Virus record (IMG/VR): IMGVR_UViG_3300046499_000422
Location: 4,060-68,059 of that record
Strand: one strand, 5' to 3'
Origin: a virus
Length of the DNA: 64,000 bases
Shown: positions 3,998-13,185 of the stretch, piece after piece
Layout: each line of letters opens with the position of its first letter
Position numbering within the stretch: the stretch's first letter is position 1
Notes under the pieces: model-generated
Seen by the model: the letters and a program-made list of their open reading frames with translations, nothing else
The model's database searches: none
Told to the model about the DNA's origin: nothing
Position numbers and translations under genes: made by a program

Positions 3998-4864
3998 CTA
4001 CAGGCTTTCGAAGTAGGCGGACTGGTCGGTGGGGTTGGTCCACGGCTGGTAGTTGCCGCTGGCCACGGCCTTGAGCTGTGGCGCCGACCCGGCGGGGACT
4101 TCAGGCAGGCCGCCCCAGCCCGGAAGGAAGTAGCGGGCGGAGTAGGGCGGGTTCTTCGAGCTGCGCCAGACGCGCTCGGCGTGATCGACGAGGACGGGCA
4201 CGCTGCGGGTGGCGACGAGGCCGGCGAGCTTCTTCCAGTCGGCTGCCTGGAGCTGCCAGCTGATGCGCATGCCGCGCAGGGTCATCTCGTCGATGAGCGG
4301 CTGGACGATCTTGAGTGCATCGACCTCTCCCGCTGCCGGCTGATCAACGGCGCGGGGGGGATGTGGTTGAACATCTACATCGTGGTTTAGCTGGTCTTGG
4401 TAGTGGGGTCCGGTTTCCGGACCCCTAGGGGTCTCGTTTTCGGACCCCTGGGGTCCGGTTTCCGGACCCCTAGCGTTTTCGCTACCGGTCCGGTTTCCGG
4501 ACCCCTGCGCGGCGCTAGGGGTCTCGTTTCCGTACCCCTGCGATACGGCTAGAGGTCCGGTTTTCGGACCCCTAGAGCCACGCTCCGGGCGGACATAACC
4601 GACGGCGCCGGGCACCCGGTAGAGCGCCGAGCGGGTGCCGCGCGCCTCCTCCAGGAGCTCCAGCTCGCCGGACTTCACGAGTGCATCGACGGACTTGATC
4701 ACCGAGGAGCGCGCGGCGTTGCTGAAGTGCGTCAGCTCGGCCGTGCTTGCCCGGACCGTGCAGTCCGGCCCCGTGATCCAGTTGGCGACGGCCAGCATGA
4801 TGTGTCGGCCGGTCCCCTTGGACTGGGAGTGGTTCCACACCCAGTACATAGCGTCGATGCTCAC
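3998..4864 (-). CDS. Phage replication initiator (N-terminal HTH, internal iterons)
   Basis: MSIDAMYWVW... HTH-type N-terminus, central low-complexity linker encoded by the iteron array, paired with a DnaC-like gene. Confidence 0.8.
   Translation of the reverse strand: MSIDAMYWVWNHSQSKGTGRHIMLAVANWITGPDCTVRASTAELTHFSNAARSSVIKSVDALVKSGELELLEEARGTRSALYRVPGAVGYVRPERGSRGPKTGPLAVSQGYGNETPSAAQGSGNRTGSENARGPETGPQGSENETPRGPETGPHYQDQLNHDVDVQPHPPRAVDQPAAGEVDALKIVQPLIDEMTLRGMRISWQLQAADWKKLAGLVATRSVPVLVDHAERVWRSSKNPPYSARYFLPGWGGLPEVPAGSAPQLKAVASGNYQPWTNPTDQSAYFESL
4405..4573. repeat. Six 22-bp quasi-palindromic iterons (GGGGTCCGGTTTCCGGACCCCT); probable replication origin
   Basis: Copies start at 4405, 4428, 4450, 4485, 4518 and 4552, inside the initiator gene as in lambda O. 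Confidence 0.85.
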
Positions 4865-7994: not shown

Positions 7995-8440
7995 CAGGCG
8001 GTCAGCCCCTTCCTGCGCCTTTTCCAGCGGGCGCTAGCTGCTCTTCTGCACGTTCGGCAGCGTCGGCAGTTACCGGGCATGTAGGTGTTCGCCTCGGTGA
8101 ATTCGTGACCGCGTACGCAGTGGGTCCGGGGGTCGTAAGCGGACGTGAGCTCGCGAGCTCGGGCCGAGTTCTCGAAAGGCGTCACCGGTTCCAAGTGCGC
8201 GACGTTCACGCACGCCCGGTTGCGGCACCGGTGGTCCAGTTGCAACCCATCGGGGATGGGGCCCACCTTGGCCTCGTAGGCCGCGCGGTGGACTTGCACG
8301 TAGCGGCCCTGCTCGGCGTCTGCGATACGTCCGTATCCCCATCTGTCTTTCTTGCCGGTCCAGATGAGGCATTCGCCTTGCGGCTGGGTGCGATTCTGGA
8401 TGCGGGTCAGGATCGGGATGCGTTGGCCTTTGATGGGCAT
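7994..8440 (-). CDS. HNH endonuclease
   Basis: CLIWTG...GYG...HRAAYE...LDHRCRNRACVNVAHLEPVT..EN. Confidence 0.9.
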   Translation of the reverse strand: MPIKGQRIPILTRIQNRTQPQGECLIWTGKKDRWGYGRIADAEQGRYVQVHRAAYEAKVGPIPDGLQLDHRCRNRACVNVAHLEPVTPFENSARARELTSAYDPRTHCVRGHEFTEANTYMPGNCRRCRTCRRAASARWKRRRKGLTA

Positions 8441-9006
8441 CAGTGCGCCACCGCCTGGCGTTCGGCGTGCTTCCGGTCGGCCTTGCAGGCGTGGCAGTAG
8501 GCGCGGCCGTCGGTCTCGTACCGGCCCCATTTGGCCTGGTCGTGGCCGTGGGCGCACTGCGGGGGTCGCTCCTTGCCGCCGGTGAGGTACCGGAGCTGCT
8601 CGCGGGTCCGGGTCCGGCCGGCCTCGTCATCGACGTGGTCCGGGGCGACGCAGTGCTTGAGGCCGCACTCGGCGTACGCGTAGCCGGCGGGCTCGCGCTG
8701 GTGCTTGATGCGGAACGCGATGGCGGCGGGACTGTGCGGCTTCTCGCGGTAGCGCAGGACGGGCGTGCCGCTGTCGGACTGTCGTTCGCCGGTCCATTCG
8801 AGGTGCCCGCCGTCGACCGGCCGGGTGTTGGCCTCCCACTTCTCTTCGAGGGTGAGGGGCTGGCGGGGAGCGTTGGGCAGGCCGAGGGCGCGGCGGATGT
8901 GGCCGGCAGTCTGCCGTTCGATGTGGAGGGTGCGGCCGATCTCGGTGTTGTTGAGGCCCTCGGCGATGAGGCGCTGGACGGCGTCGGTCTTCGGGTGCAG
9001 TCGCAT
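8440..9006 (-). CDS. HTH plus degenerate HNH-like protein
   Basis: N-terminal HTH (GLNNTEIGRTLHI), then HLEWTG...CGLKHCVAPDHV and CAHGH...CHAC; lacks the canonical DH and N residues. Confidence 0.7.
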   Translation of the reverse strand: MRLHPKTDAVQRLIAEGLNNTEIGRTLHIERQTAGHIRRALGLPNAPRQPLTLEEKWEANTRPVDGGHLEWTGERQSDSGTPVLRYREKPHSPAAIAFRIKHQREPAGYAYAECGLKHCVAPDHVDDEAGRTRTREQLRYLTGGKERPPQCAHGHDQAKWGRYETDGRAYCHACKADRKHAERQAVAH

Positions 9007-9407
9007 CAGCGCACCGCCCCGAGGTCGGGCCACTGCTCGCCAAGGTCCAGCTCGCGGACGACGAGGACGAGCTGTCCGCCCTTGACGATGTCGCCGAGCC
9101 GCATGTCCGGGCCGAGGACGTGGATGTGGTCGTCGTCGTCCAGGACCCCGGCGTCAACGATGCCGTCGACGGCGGCCTTCACGGACGGGTACCAGTTCGC
9201 AGGGTCACGGCGACGCCTGTCATGCGGGTGAAGGACAGCCGTGATGTGGGCGCGCTGGAGTTCGGGGACGCCGAACGCGGCTTCCATGGCCGCGCCGCGG
9301 ATGCCCTTGGTGACCTTCGCGCGGGTGCGCCAGTGGAGGCGCTGGTTCGACGTCATCAGGCGCAGCCCGGCGGGCAACACAATCGAGAAGGTACGAAGTT
9401 CCTGCAT
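9006..9407 (-). CDS. rusA: RusA-like Holliday junction resolvase
   Basis: RRDPANWYPSVKAAVDGIVDAGVLDDD catalytic motif. Confidence 0.85.
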   Translation of the reverse strand: MQELRTFSIVLPAGLRLMTSNQRLHWRTRAKVTKGIRGAAMEAAFGVPELQRAHITAVLHPHDRRRRDPANWYPSVKAAVDGIVDAGVLDDDDHIHVLGPDMRLGDIVKGGQLVLVVRELDLGEQWPDLGAVR

Positions 9408-9410
9408 CGC

Positions 9411-9953
9411 TCACGCGTCCTTTCCGGCGGCGTTGTAGCGCGCCTGCCGTTCGCGGTGGCAGACCTTGCAGCGGCGCTTGAGCGGCGAGAGCCGGATGAC
9501 CGTGACGTTCTCGTCGGTGAGCGGGTGTCCCTTGGCGCAGACGCCCGTTCGGGCTGCAATGGCCGATGGGCTGTTGCCTCGGCGGACGTTCTCGCCAGGC
9601 GTCACCGGCTCCAAGTGGGCGGGGTTGACGCAGCGCCGGACGCGGCACAGGTGGTCGAGGTGCAGTCCCTCGGGGATCGGGCCGACGAGCAGCACGTAGG
9701 CGAATACGTGAGCGCCGCGAACCCGCTGTCCGTCCCACACAAGGCCGTACCCAGCGCTGGTGACGGCTCCCTGCCACACCCAGCAGGGCCCGAGGTCGGG
9801 GCGGTCTACGGGGAGCGGGGCCTCTTCCTGGACCTTGGAACGGAAGCGGGGCGGAAGGCCGGCGGGGAGGGTGATGGTGTGGAGGCGGCGGGTGGGGCCC
9901 GCCCCCGCGTGGGGGGAGCACGCGGGGGCGGGGGTCTCGATGGCGGCGGTCAT
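9411..9953 (-). CDS. HNH homing endonuclease
   Basis: CWVWQG...GYG...AHVFAY...LDHLCRVRRCVNPAHLEPVT..EN. Confidence 0.9.
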   Translation of the reverse strand: MTAAIETPAPACSPHAGAGPTRRLHTITLPAGLPPRFRSKVQEEAPLPVDRPDLGPCWVWQGAVTSAGYGLVWDGQRVRGAHVFAYVLLVGPIPEGLHLDHLCRVRRCVNPAHLEPVTPGENVRRGNSPSAIAARTGVCAKGHPLTDENVTVIRLSPLKRRCKVCHRERQARYNAAGKDA

Positions 9954-10588
9954 GCTGCGGCTCCCAGAATGTGAGTGGTGAACTGCTCGCCGATCCACTG
10001 GCTGTACGACGGCGGCACCGCCTGACGGCCCTCCTTGGCGCTCATCCACGTGCACCCCATGGCGTCGGCGTACGCCCGCTCGCCCTTGTGCTCGAAGGCC
10101 AGAAGGGTCCGCGGGTGCCAGCACGGCGGGAGCAGGTCGCCCCCCCCGTGCCACGACGTCTCGAAGGCGCGGTGCCGCTTGACATTGAGTCCGAACTGGC
10201 TGCCGCACAGCAGGTAGTCGGGGCGTAGCGGTGCCTCGGGGACGTTCTCGATGACCCAGGGGCGGCCGGTGGCCTGCATGGCGGCGCGGCCGGGGGTGAG
10301 GAGGTCCTCGTGGTCGGCCTGGTCGCCGCGCCACAGGGTGACGTTGGCGAAGTACTGGCACGGCCAGGAGGCGTGGATGAAGTCGTACTCGTGGCCGTGC
10401 TCGCGTACGTACTCGACGGCGTCGCTCTGGTGGAAGGTGAACGGATAGTTGGGCATGGGGTGCTTGTCGACGCCGGTCACCTCGAATCCTGCGAGGTGGT
10501 AGCCCATGGACAGGCCGCCGGCGCCGCAGCAGACATCGAGGAGCCGGAGGCCGTTGGCCTCGCGCTCGGGCGCCTGGAAGGCGGTCAC
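9950..10588 (-). CDS. Short C5-cytosine DNA methyltransferase-like protein
   Basis: LDVCCGAGG (motif I), SWPCQ (motif IV), VIENV (motif VI), RHR.F (motif VIII). Confidence 0.85.
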   Translation of the reverse strand: MTAFQAPEREANGLRLLDVCCGAGGLSMGYHLAGFEVTGVDKHPMPNYPFTFHQSDAVEYVREHGHEYDFIHASWPCQYFANVTLWRGDQADHEDLLTPGRAAMQATGRPWVIENVPEAPLRPDYLLCGSQFGLNVKRHRAFETSWHGGGDLLPPCWHPRTLLAFEHKGERAYADAMGCTWMSAKEGRQAVPPSYSQWIGEQFTTHILGAAA

Positions 10589-10899
10589 AGCGCGCCTTCC
10601 TGGGTGGTGCCCGCCCCGGTGCCGGTGTGCGGCACGGGGGCGGGGGTCTCGGTGGTGATCGCGCCCGTGATGGGCGTGTAGTGGCCGGCCGGGCACGTGA
10701 AGCCGCCGTTGAGGTGCACTCGCCCGTACCGGACGCCGGTGCAGTCCACGCACCAGCCGCGGTCCAGGGCCACGGTCTCCAGGCCGGTCGCGTACGGCAG
10801 TGGTGGCAGCGGGCGGGGCGTGATCCGCTGGCCCCGGACCACACAGAGCAGGGCGATGATGGCGAAACCAGCCAGGCCGCCGAGGACCATGGAGATCAC
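10585..10899 (-). CDS. Membrane-anchored Zn-finger hypothetical protein
   Basis: N-terminal TM segment; CVDC...CPAGH. Confidence 0.7.
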   Translation of the reverse strand: MISMVLGGLAGFAIIALLCVVRGQRITPRPLPPLPYATGLETVALDRGWCVDCTGVRYGRVHLNGGFTCPAGHYTPITGAITTETPAPVPHTGTGAGTTQEGAL

Positions 10900-11267
10900 G
10901 AGGTCACCTCGCCATCCGGACGGTGGGCCTCACGCCACGCCTGGTCCGCGACCGCCGCGCTCTCGGCGTTCAGTGACTCGTTGACCTTCTGCAACGTTTC
11001 CAACTGGCCCTGAAGCGCGGTCCGGGCCTCTTCCGACCGGGCCAGACGGTGCAGCAACTCGGTGTCGCTGCTTTTTCGGAGGCGTTGCACCTCGGCGTCG
11101 AGGCGCTCGTTCTCGTCGTGCAGGCGGGTGTACTCGCCCGACGCGCGGCGCAGGTCGAAGCGGAGGGTCTTCACCTCGTCGCGGGCCGCATCGCGCTCTT
11201 CCACGACGCGCTCATACCTGTCCGCATCGACCGGCGGCCGGGCCGAAACCCGACGGCGCCGCCTCAC
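10896..11267 (-). CDS. Coiled-coil hypothetical protein
   Basis: Heptad-rich ORF coupled to the RecT-like gene; start uncertain. Confidence 0.65.
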   Translation of the reverse strand: MRRRRRVSARPPVDADRYERVVEERDAARDEVKTLRFDLRRASGEYTRLHDENERLDAEVQRLRKSSDTELLHRLARSEEARTALQGQLETLQKVNESLNAESAAVADQAWREAHRPDGEVTS

Positions 11268-12295
11268 TCCGCACCCCCGGCGGCGCGCACCCTGCTGTCG
11301 CGCGTGACCATCTCGCTGGCCAACTCCTGAGTCAGCGAACGGATCTGCGCCTCCGACGCATCGGACAGCGGGCCGCCCGTCACGCCATGGCAGCGCTCCT
11401 CCAGGTCGCCGGGACTCATGCCGAGGGACGCCGCAATCTGGTGGATGTCCCACGTGTGCAGGTCATCGCGCGCCTTCTGTGCGGTCCGCGGCGTCGCCTG
11501 CTGCCTGATCTCCTCGACCGTCACACGCGGCAGCGGGAACTCGTCATCCGCCGTGACCTCACCCTGCGAGATCGACTTCCCGATCGTGACCAGCTGCGCC
11601 ACGTCGTGCTCGGTCCACTTCCCCGACAGCCGGCCAAGCTTCGTCTCGATGCGGTCCAGCGTCACGCCGATGTTCTCGAACGCCTTGATGGTGTCCGCGA
11701 TCCGCAGGTTCAGCGGCTTGCCGCCGCCGTCGCGCAGGGTCTTCGCGCACAGTTCCTTGGCCTCTTCGACGAACCAGGGCGGCAGGATGGCGAAGATCGC
11801 CTCGCGGACGCGGCGGGCGCCGTTGTTGGCGTTGTTCTCGTAGATGTCCCGCATGTCGTCGAGCTTCTTCGGGCCGCCCTTCTGGTCCCTCTTGTGCGGC
11901 ACGATGAACGTGGAGGAGTTGCGGCTGTTCTTCTGGACGTCCCAGGCGAAGGCCTGCATCTCCGACTCGCCGTACTCGTCGTCGCGGCGCATCTCGACGA
12001 GCCCGTACTGAATGTTGCCCCAGCAGCGGGCCAGTTCCCGGGCGAGGTGGACGGACGGGCCGGACACCTGCTGCCCGCCGCGCGGGAATCGGAACGACGC
12101 CTTCTCGGCGAGGTACATCTGCGAGCAGGACTGGCGCATCTCGGCGATGGCGGCGTTGATGTCGCGGGGGCACTGCTGGGCGACGACGATCGCGGCCTGG
12201 ACCTCGGCGACGGCGCGCGACTGTTCTACGGCGGTGCCCTGCCCAAGGCGGGTCGGGGACGGCGCGGGTGCCATGCGCTCGGCGGGGTAGTTCAT
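11264..12295 (-). CDS. Putative ssDNA-annealing (RecT-like) protein
   Basis: 343 aa gene directly downstream of the RecE-like exonuclease; GPSVHLARELARCWGN pattern seen in actinophage annealing proteins. Confidence 0.65.
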   Translation of the reverse strand: MNYPAERMAPAPSPTRLGQGTAVEQSRAVAEVQAAIVVAQQCPRDINAAIAEMRQSCSQMYLAEKASFRFPRGGQQVSGPSVHLARELARCWGNIQYGLVEMRRDDEYGESEMQAFAWDVQKNSRNSSTFIVPHKRDQKGGPKKLDDMRDIYENNANNGARRVREAIFAILPPWFVEEAKELCAKTLRDGGGKPLNLRIADTIKAFENIGVTLDRIETKLGRLSGKWTEHDVAQLVTIGKSISQGEVTADDEFPLPRVTVEEIRQQATPRTAQKARDDLHTWDIHQIAASLGMSPGDLEERCHGVTGGPLSDASEAQIRSLTQELASEMVTRDSRVRAAGGAE

Positions 12296-13185
12296 GCGAG
12301 GTACTCCTCGGTGTCACGGATGGCGGCCCATGTGGGCAGGGAGAGGTAGGCGATGTCGTCGCTGTAGCCGGGCCACACGCCCGACTCGGTGCACTCGGCG
12401 AAGACTTCGAGGGCACGCCGGTTGCGGGCGGCGCCGATACGGCGGGCGGTGGCGTCCATTTCGACGACGGTCACGAGGTACGGGGCGGTCTTCTCCTGGC
12501 AGACGAAGACGAACGCGGCACTGTCGTCGGCGAGGTCGAGGGCGCGGGCGGCGGCGCGGTACCAGTCGTCTTGCTGGTGGTAGCCGAACTCCTGAACAGC
12601 CCGTTCCAGGGCGGCGGGTTCGGCGGAGCGGCACGTCTTGTAGTCGGGGATGATCAGCCGCCCGGAGCGGGCGTCAGGCAGCCAGTCGAACCGCGCCCGA
12701 CGCATCACGCCCGTCGGCCGGTCTCGCCAGAACAGCGACTGCTCCGGCCGGCCGCGCGCGGGGTCGAACAGGGCTGCGGCGATGGGGTGGCGGCGCAGGG
12801 CGTCGGCCATCGCGTGGACCTGCTCGTACTCGGCGGGCTTGAGGGGGATGCCGCCCTCGTCGCGGATCGCGGCGACCTCGGCCTTGACGGCGTTCGTCGT
12901 CCACTTCTCCGCGTCGACCTGGACGAGGTCGGGGCCTTCGCCGAGTACGAGCTTGTGGGCGGCGGTGCCGAGCTCGAACGTCTTCTTGGGCTCGGCCGGG
13001 GTGTCCTGTGCGTGCCGGAACAGGGCGGGGCAGGACGGGGGGAGGAGGAGGCGGGCGCCGGACGAGGAGAGGGAGCCTCGGTCGGCGTGGTACTCCTCGT
13101 TGGTCATCTGGTAGATGCCGGGCTCCGTGATGCCGGGGCCGGCGGCCGGGGCGGTGGTCGCCCCGGCCAGCTCGGTGTTCGTCAT
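12292..13185 (-). CDS. RecE/ExoVIII-like PD-(D/E)XK exonuclease
   Basis: YHAD..LSSSG, GTAAH, RARFDW...DYKT, YHQQDDWY, QEK.APY motifs. Confidence 0.88.
   Translation of the reverse strand: MTNTELAGATTAPAAGPGITEPGIYQMTNEEYHADRGSLSSSGARLLLPPSCPALFRHAQDTPAEPKKTFELGTAAHKLVLGEGPDLVQVDAEKWTTNAVKAEVAAIRDEGGIPLKPAEYEQVHAMADALRRHPIAAALFDPARGRPEQSLFWRDRPTGVMRRARFDWLPDARSGRLIIPDYKTCRSAEPAALERAVQEFGYHQQDDWYRAAARALDLADDSAAFVFVCQEKTAPYLVTVVEMDATARRIGAARNRRALEVFAECTESGVWPGYSDDIAYLSLPTWAAIRDTEEYLA

Follow-up and report, generated by a model that had tools for sequence, protein, structure and literature searches.

An HNH endonuclease gene with an apparently captured rusA start precedes a mosaic rusA in a relative of Streptomyces phages

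In a 64,000-nucleotide (nt) stretch of viral DNA, here called the window (positions 4,060 to 68,059 of IMG/VR virus record IMGVR_UViG_3300046499_000422), an open reading frame (ORF) for an HNH endonuclease lies directly ahead of rusA, which encodes a protein resembling the Holliday-junction resolvase RusA. We found that this ORF opens with the start of the resident rusA, and that the rusA behind it is a mosaic of two RusA lineages. The arrangement probably arose by intron-less homing, or by recombination in which the left joint was illegitimate, the flanking gene being co-converted as well. The window makes up most of the 68-kb record, which CheckV rates as 100% complete; its G+C content is 70%, and Streptomyces phages, OnionKnight among them, come closest to it among annotated genomes. 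All genes described lie on the minus strand, and the left joint is the one at the 5′ end of the HNH sequence.

The HNH ORF begins with the start of the resident rusA

The ORF encodes a protein of 180 amino acids (aa), P0001, whose residues 1-33 are identical at 31 of 33 positions to the N-terminus of the uninterrupted RusA protein P0007. The N-termini of P0007 and P0018, which read (V/M)TA..IETP..ACSPHAGAGPT.RLHTITLPAGL, are nearly as in the HNH ORF, and a comparison of residues 1-40 with 5.8 billion proteins returned three matches, all of them RusA (P0018, expect (E) value 1.3e-9; P0007, E 3e-9; P0006, E 9.5). At the DNA level, window 9952-9856 aligned by blastn with the rusA 5′ end of L050 (3987-4086), a related IMG/VR phage locus with an uninterrupted rusA, at 94% identity across a 100-nt alignment. 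Between the start of rusA and ...CCCGCCGGCCT (...GGCCT, 9855) the two loci differ by two substitutions and one codon indel. Past 9855 the divergence is complete, the window running into HNH sequence and L050 into RLLNANQR, and no homology was found between them upstream of the start codon either. This duplication is far beyond chance. Sequence comparison confirms that the HNH ORF begins with the start of a resident rusA, as the preliminary description, made from the letters of the window alone, had proposed; this rusA is of the long type.

The long type is the common form of the gene: most of the 541 homologues retrieved in a RusA search have about 164 aa, with a leader of about 24 aa before ...TITLPAGL and RLLNANQR after it. 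P0007, P0018 and L050 all run from ...ITLPAGL straight into RLLNANQR, and thus represent the HNH-free relatives with a single rusA that had been predicted. In the window, LPAGL is encoded as ctc ccc gcc ggc ctt at 9869-9855 and as ttg ccc gcc ggg ctg at 9377-9363; both codings, like the coordinates first given for the locus, proved exact, and the peptide occurs at only these two sites in the six-frame translation of the window (127,996 residues). The G+C fraction at third codon positions (GC3) of the captured leader is 0.97.

The rusA downstream of the HNH gene is a mosaic

The product of the downstream rusA, P0002, is RusA-like by its PHROG match (phrog_34, E 3e-23), and the family profile A2 matches E. 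coli RusA (PDB 1q8r) with E 0.0029. No Pfam-A family was matched at E up to 1, which indicates that RusA here belongs to a divergent actinobacterial branch. Over residues 5-76, P0002 agrees with short-type RusA proteins (P0004 and P0005, which are leaderless and have 126-130 aa) at 62-63 of 72 positions, versus 43-47 of 72 for the long type, and it lacks a long-type insertion of about 13 columns between residues 50 and 51. Residues 77-89 are identical to both types, and over residues 90-133 the relation is reversed, with 42 of 44 positions shared with the long-type P0007 versus 17-18 of 44 with the short type. The 3′ part (9006..9092) is 85-86% identical in DNA to L005 and L050. A rusA of this composition, short-type at residues 5-76 and then long-type at residues 90-133, is the pattern expected of co-conversion.

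Both ends of the P0007-like resident gene are kept, the 5′ end on the HNH ORF and the 3′ end in rusA. A tandem rusA duplication with subsequent decay was considered and rejected, since both ends fit one parental allele type and the middle another lineage. GC3 is 0.84 in the imported 5′ part of rusA and 0.955 in the resident 3′ part; counted over codons, 74 of 77 in the resident parts versus 191 of 223 in the imported parts end in G or C (Fisher p 0.013). The foreign tract measures 649-762 nt, from 9854 to an end within 9206-9093. It consists of the HNH gene minus its first few codons, the stop, 3 nt and the native start of a short-type rusA with about 67-105 codons, some two-thirds of that gene, and the most likely crossover site, judged from the alignments, is the block DPANWYP..KAAVDGIVDAGVL common to both types. 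All family-invariant residues are kept in the chimeric protein; D68, D81, D85 and D91-D93 are invariant in alignment A2 of the RusA family. In the hidden Markov model alignment of A2 with 1q8r, RRRRDPAN has Ala where E. coli RRRRDLDN has the second Asp; we take the aligned acidic residues of E. coli RusA to be catalytic.

HNH-bearing and HNH-free alleles in public metagenomes

Logan contigs of four public rhizosphere metagenome runs (X1-X4) were placed on 8900-10200, and parts of the stretch left uncovered in X2-X4 were not counted as evidence. X1, which may be the source sample, covers the whole stretch with 0 differences; its assembly graph branches at 9856, and the coding strand of the loose end at that point gives the same HNH-free continuation as L050. 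In X2, from an independent study, one contig over 9711-9909 bridges the left joint with 0 differences and a further contig covers 9157-9358 with 1 difference, while contigs of both X3 and X4 run across the HNH stop and the rusA start with 0 differences. X3 also contains a 475-nt contig in which 9916-9856 (0 differences) is followed by 196 letters of other sequence and then by 9206-9054 (13 of 153 positions different), a spacing that equals the exact length of the uninterrupted long-type gene in L050. The HNH gene is therefore polymorphic in its presence, missing from L050, P0007, P0018, the X3 contig and the X1 loose end and found in X2, X3 and X4, and HNH-bearing and HNH-free alleles occur in related phages of the same habitat type. 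A second joint in X3, from 9041 to 9887 (skipping 845 nt, side 30), has support too weak to interpret; it may be another variant of the rusA region in a related phage.

Other loci with an HNH gene beside rusA

Among 133 loci with more than 600 nt upstream of rusA, some of which duplicate one contig, three had a P0001-like HNH gene at most 100 nt upstream of it. The HNH protein of L143, a locus found only through its rusA, is 65% identical to P0001 and is the closest one placed in genomic context. Its gene is free-standing, with its own GTG and AAGGAG, and lies directly before a leaderless rusA with a junction like that of the window, where GAAAGG lies within the last codons and is followed by the stop, 2-3 nt and ATG. 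In L019 a different HNH gene (44% identical) is fused in frame to a 14-aa rusA leader, VTTLFTPEVPAATT. When the N-terminus of this protein was searched against a mixed set of 120 RusA and 119 HNH proteins, all 15 top matches were RusA N-termini, aligned from position 1 or 2 (best E 4.7e-7). The fused ORF starts in a GTGA overlap with the stop upstream, and rusA restarts as MTEIRSYTIALAAGL behind GAAAGG. In L019 a rusA start has been captured a second time, independently and at another junction. An HNH gene also lies directly before rusA in L162, with no recognisable leader.

Further searches were made for fusions, donors and parents, and neither the exact parent nor the donor came to light in them. 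A tblastn search with 66 RusA leaders against all collected loci gave 54 matches, each followed by a rusA body, and no further fusion; the leader of L019, with its 14 aa, could not have reached the threshold of this search. Among 401 Streptomyces genomes, 20 matched P0005 (E up to 1e-20), with a best full-length identity of about 60%, and none of the 20 had a P0001-like HNH gene. A metagenome scan with P0007 (51 loci) did not return P0007's own contig, a genome contig scan with P0001 (best 80 of 184 loci) gave no HNH protein above 54% identity, and in IMG/VR scans, one with P0001 and one with the clade alignment A3, identity did not exceed about 55-60% among the matches listed.

This HNH group has a conserved C-terminal A-A-(R/G)-K, and the letters that encode it, ...GAAAGG..., seem to double as the Shine-Dalgarno sequence of rusA; the double use is seen in all three loci (window 9405-9425, L143 3985-4006, L019 3975-3995). 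In the window it corresponds to the ribosome-binding site that had been recognized from the start within the 3′ end of the HNH gene. The first ORF at the rusA position, whether rusA itself or the HNH gene replacing it, overlaps the upstream stop as GTGA or ATGA in L050 (3986-3989), L019 (3505-3511) and L143 (3558-3561) as well. Translational coupling at this position thus seems to be conserved across the mosaic, despite differing upstream genes.

A proposed route by homing and co-conversion, and the passenger alternative

In the route that we consider probable, the donor would have a free-standing HNH gene that normally lies immediately 5′ of a leaderless rusA. The HNH enzyme would cut an HNH-free long-type rusA, and repair from the donor's HNH gene and leaderless rusA would copy the HNH gene, along with the start and the first 67-105 codons or so of short-type rusA, into a phage whose rusA has a 24-aa leader. 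The right joint would be a homologous crossover in the conserved catalytic block DPANWYP..DGIVDAGVL (9206-9093). The left joint, in frame and precisely behind ...CCCGCCGGCCT (9855), would be non-homologous or rest on microhomology of a few bases; since the donor lacks a leader, it would have been made illegitimately. Selection may then have favoured in-frame joints, as they allow HNH expression. The HNH gene would have lost its own start and would be translated from the resident rusA ATG, coupled through ATGA to the methyltransferase stop, with a 33-aa RusA tag, and the rebuilt rusA would be translated from the imported ATG, served by the Shine-Dalgarno-like sequence in the last HNH codons. 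The resident sequence at the joint would thereby be destroyed upstream and replaced downstream by a diverged allele. Target immunity by divergence of the imported copy is plausible, because the resident sequence at the joint differs from the imported copy at many positions.

Several observations weigh against this route. Classical homing needs homology on both sides, and the left joint has none, so that the event would be at least in part illegitimate recombination. The HNH-free contig of X3 comes from a relative (91.5% identity on the 3′ side) and not from the exact parent. An HNH gene directly upstream of rusA is rare, in 3 of the 133 loci and in 0 of the 20 from Streptomyces genomes; in these searches no contig showed a P0001-type HNH gene with a start of its own directly ahead of a P0004-type rusA, and no genomic context was obtained for the closest HNH relatives (P0124-P0130). 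The gene call of the source record, moreover, comprises a 109-aa HNH protein only (P0123, 9411-9740, from the GTG at codon 72), so that translation from the rusA ATG is putative.

The HNH gene could also be a passenger. Under ordinary phage mosaicism, one homologous and one illegitimate exchange would have produced the locus with no break made by the enzyme. The left joint without flanking homology would fit such exchanges, as would the relation to L050, which shares rusA and the WhiB side with the window (86%) and has different genes up- and downstream of rusA. Module boundaries at gene starts are common in the region, and HNH genes are scattered in such phages, with three in 2 kb here. Mosaicism alone, however, does not readily account for another, independent case in L019 of a rusA leader fused to an unrelated HNH gene, for a related HNH gene at the same position in L143 with a conserved junction, or for the presence of both alleles in related samples; together these fit an element that targets the 5′ end of rusA. 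We therefore regard the passenger explanation as unlikely, and it retains a real share of our credence because of the non-homologous left joint.

More tentatively, we propose that an actinophage HNH clade specialised on the rusA 5′ end acts as a 'self-repairing' cassette, which captures the start of its target, itself coupled to the gene upstream, and delivers a Shine-Dalgarno sequence within its last codons, an ATG and a diverged, cleavage-resistant 5′ segment. Should this be so, the element would need no promoter or start of its own, the host would lose nothing, and the element would be expressed as well as immune; the captures in the window and in L019 would be independent of each other, and L143 would show the unfused, donor-like state.

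The HNH protein and its translation start

P0001 matches the Pfam family HNH_3 (PF13392) over residues 80-124 (E 1.1e-11, 44.6 bits against a cut-off of 24.8) and phrog_826 (E 2.6e-48). In alignment A1 (16 sequences) H101, C103, C108, H113, C139, H143, C162 and C165 are invariant, and N110 and N122 are at least 90% conserved. The HNH body aligns over its full length with homologues and, from these alignments, looks intact. A profile search of the PDB with P0001 gave no match, and its AlphaFold2 model found only weak Foldseek matches among His-Me finger nucleases (I-PpoI, E 0.013; I-HmuI, E 0.068). The mean confidence (predicted local distance difference test score, pLDDT) of the model is 85.5 overall and exceeds 85 from residue 31, and the first 20 or so residues have low confidence, so the rusA leader would fit a floppy tag. 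The seven closest homologues (P0124-P0130, 61-69% identity) all begin M-xx-LPxRF, 2-3 residues before LPxRF, and the conserved N-terminal segment of the family begins at residue 33 of P0001. ITLPAGL is absent from all seven, which bears out the earlier view that this segment is not native to the HNH protein.

After codon 1, the only in-frame starts of the HNH ORF are the GTGs at codons 59 and 72. As no start lies between codons 1 and 59 and the family's N-terminal segment begins at residue 33, a full-length enzyme could be made only from the old rusA ATG. Alternatively, the leader might be an untranslated relic, with the HNH protein made from one of the two GTGs or no longer made. The 109-aa call of the source record is in line with this, and an in-frame joint would arise by chance in one case out of three. 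A start at codon 59 or 72, however, would lose LPxRFxxK...RPxLGPCW(x)W, a segment kept in all seven closest homologues; neither GTG has a Shine-Dalgarno-like purine run in its 18 upstream bases, and L019 is likewise fused in frame, with a start that overlaps the upstream stop as GTGA. A relic leader is, in our judgement, improbable. The P0123 call drops the conserved N-terminal part and hides the leader-HNH fusion.

The leader-HNH ORF and rusA share one reading frame, with TGA-GCG between them, so that read-through of a single stop would yield a leader-HNH-RusA polyprotein. The shared frame is probably a coincidence, since L143 and L019 use other frames. A group I or group II intron or an intein was rejected as an account of the insertion: the ORF ends in a stop, rusA has its own ATG, and no Rfam intron family was matched at E up to 1 in 8800-10200, intein motifs not having been searched separately.

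Nature of the new rusA N-terminus

The preliminary description envisaged a compact homing cassette of about 490 bp, inserted after LPAGL and carrying a short N-terminus deliberately recoded to protect the target. The capture of the start, the rebuilt gene and a mobile HNH element stand; the size and the nature of the replacement do not. It is true that the insertion point lies directly after LPAGL and that the start and ribosome-binding site of rusA come from the element. The foreign tract, at 649-762 nt, nevertheless exceeds such a cassette and includes the 5′ part of another rusA lineage: short-type character persists to at least codon 67, including the missing insertion of about 13 columns. 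MQELRTFSIV, the new N-terminus, is similar to starts that are native to other RusA proteins without a leader, such as MTQPRVYTIELPAGM and MTEPREYTLELPAGL, and is best read as a native short-type start rather than a purpose-made one, given the agreement with P0004 and P0005 over residues 5-76. The 'recoding' is therefore ordinary divergence between two alleles. Codons ending in A or T, which had been taken as a sign of recoding, lie at the native start region and are present at the rusA start of L019 too. HNH-free relatives starting with MQELRTFSIV had been named as evidence that would count against the earlier reading; short-type homologues do start similarly, although not in the sense then intended. 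A recoded compact cassette thus appears very improbable to us.

Least credible of all is an assembly chimera of two co-occurring metagenome phages. In its favour, one kind of sample holds both allele types, and there is a branch in the assembly graph at 9856. Against it, the left joint is bridged without differences by a contig of X2, another X2 contig spans the crossover zone, the HNH stop and the rusA start are covered without differences by contigs of X3 and X4, and both ORFs are intact and in frame.

Comparison with known systems

Three published systems offer comparisons, and the mechanism that comes closest among those described is that of mobile endonuclease ORFs (mORFs). In the mORFs of fungal mitochondria, described in Allomyces macrogynus atp6 and in Glomus atp6, atp9, cox2 and nad3, an endonuclease gene brings a foreign C-terminal piece of its host gene, which joins in phase to form a hybrid gene; the displaced native C-terminus stays alongside, near-identical to close relatives, and the inserted piece is diverged (PMC3630166). 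The window resembles these elements in combining an endonuclease with a foreign piece of the host gene and in retaining the displaced native piece. It differs in that the 5′ end is replaced here and the 3′ end there, as in a mirror image, in that the displaced piece is reused here as the translation start of the endonuclease, and in its enzyme and genome, an HNH endonuclease in a double-stranded DNA actinophage as against LAGLIDADG or GIY-YIG enzymes in a mitochondrion. By analogy, the element in the window would work like the mORF class without being a member of it by enzyme family, host or gene end replaced.

For the T-even phages' free-standing endonucleases (seg, mob), intron-less homing, marker exclusion and co-conversion of flanking genes are established, and in T4 the endonuclease genes lie between genes with their own start or split genes into two polypeptides, as mobE does nrdA and mobA the topoisomerase gene (PMC2988022). 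The window shares with seg and mob an endonuclease beside a DNA-metabolism gene, variable presence among relatives and a donor-derived mosaic flank. Unlike in T4, the host gene here is rebuilt whole instead of split, and its former N-terminus is now joined to the endonuclease; unlike in the T-even homing scheme, the left joint is non-homologous.

The hidden HNH of the ShiLan type, described in 2025, is an out-of-frame HNH sequence within an insertion in an actinophage DNA methylase gene (PMC11855218). It shares with the window an unorthodox HNH insertion in an actinophage gene and a mode of HNH translation that is in question. In the window, by contrast, the HNH sequence is in frame with the host N-terminus and ends in a stop, after which the host gene restarts, whereas the ShiLan insertion is described as staying in frame with the host protein.

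Among annotated phage RusA proteins, the closest is the RusA-like resolvase gp42 of OnionKnight (57.6% identity), which has a leader and an ...FVIALPAGLKLLNSNQRLH motif. There too an HNH gene (gp43) abuts rusA; unlike in the window, it lies downstream of an uninterrupted rusA, with no fusion. In the open-access literature searched, no description was found of an HNH gene fused to a rusA start.

If the homing route holds, the window shows, with both parental allele types known, a ribozyme- and intein-free invasion of an essential-type phage gene by a selfish endonuclease. It would extend the mechanism of endonuclease plus replacement gene end, so far a matter of fungal mitochondria, to double-stranded DNA phages and to gene 5′ ends, and would account for one source of mosaic rusA alleles in Streptomyces phages. 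The locus is also an annotation trap, in which the gene caller cut the fused ORF to 109 aa, and such fusions are probably under-reported. The co-occurring HNH-bearing and HNH-free rhizosphere alleles offer a simple system for the target specificity of the abundant actinophage HNH_3 genes.

Gene neighbourhood

The features of the locus are collected in Table 1. The TGA of the methyltransferase gene (9952-9950) overlaps the ATG of the HNH ORF (9953-9951) as ATGA, the HNH stop and the rusA ATG are 3 nt apart (TGA-gcg-ATG), and rusA and the next gene meet as TGATG.

Table 1. Features of the rusA locus in the window (positions of the window)
Feature	Position	Strand	Remarks
DNA methyltransferase gene	9950..10753	minus	phrog_363 E 9.6e-34; weak Pfam DNA_methylase match
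Fused ORF, rusA leader + HNH, 180 aa (P0001)	9411..9953	minus	ATG 9953-9951, TGA 9413-9411
Apparently captured 5′ end of resident long-type rusA, 33 codons	9855..9953	minus	24-aa leader + first strand ...ITLPAGL
HNH_3 endonuclease body, residues 34-180 + stop, without own start codon	9411..9854	minus	PF13392
Shine-Dalgarno-like GGAAAGGA in last HNH codons	9418..9425	minus	10 nt ahead of rusA ATG
Chimeric rusA, complete, 133 aa (P0002)	9006..9407	minus	ATG 9407-9405, TGA 9008-9006; phrog_34 E 3e-23
Putatively imported leaderless short-type rusA 5′ part, codons 1-67	9207..9407	minus	segment identities
Probable right-hand homologous crossover interval, codons 68-105	9093..9206	minus	flanked by informative residues
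Resident long-type rusA 3′ part, codons 106-133 + stop	9006..9092	minus	segment identities
HNH-family gene 3′ of rusA	9007-8440	minus	phrog_826 E 1.1e-34
Standard HNH_3 gene	8557-7994	minus	Pfam E 3.4e-13; 47% identical to P0001, residues 54-175
WhiB gene	7994-7545	minus	

Three HNH-family genes lie within 2 kb around rusA. The product of the one at 9007-8440 has a helix-turn-helix-like N-terminus and apparently lacks the conserved Asn positions in alignment A1. In L050, 1.8 kb of unrelated sequence separates rusA from WhiB, in place of the two HNH-family genes. A consensus scan of 8800-10900 gave no promoter-like or terminator-like sites, a result that is uninformative for a high-GC actinophage, and in a DNA search no record of the phage collection covered at least 80% of 8400-10800. 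Upstream of the methylase gene, in the recombination module, window 11481-13000 is 87% identical to L020, and its DNA is 73.6% identical to the OnionKnight region of gp39 (annotated as a Cas4 exonuclease) and gp40.

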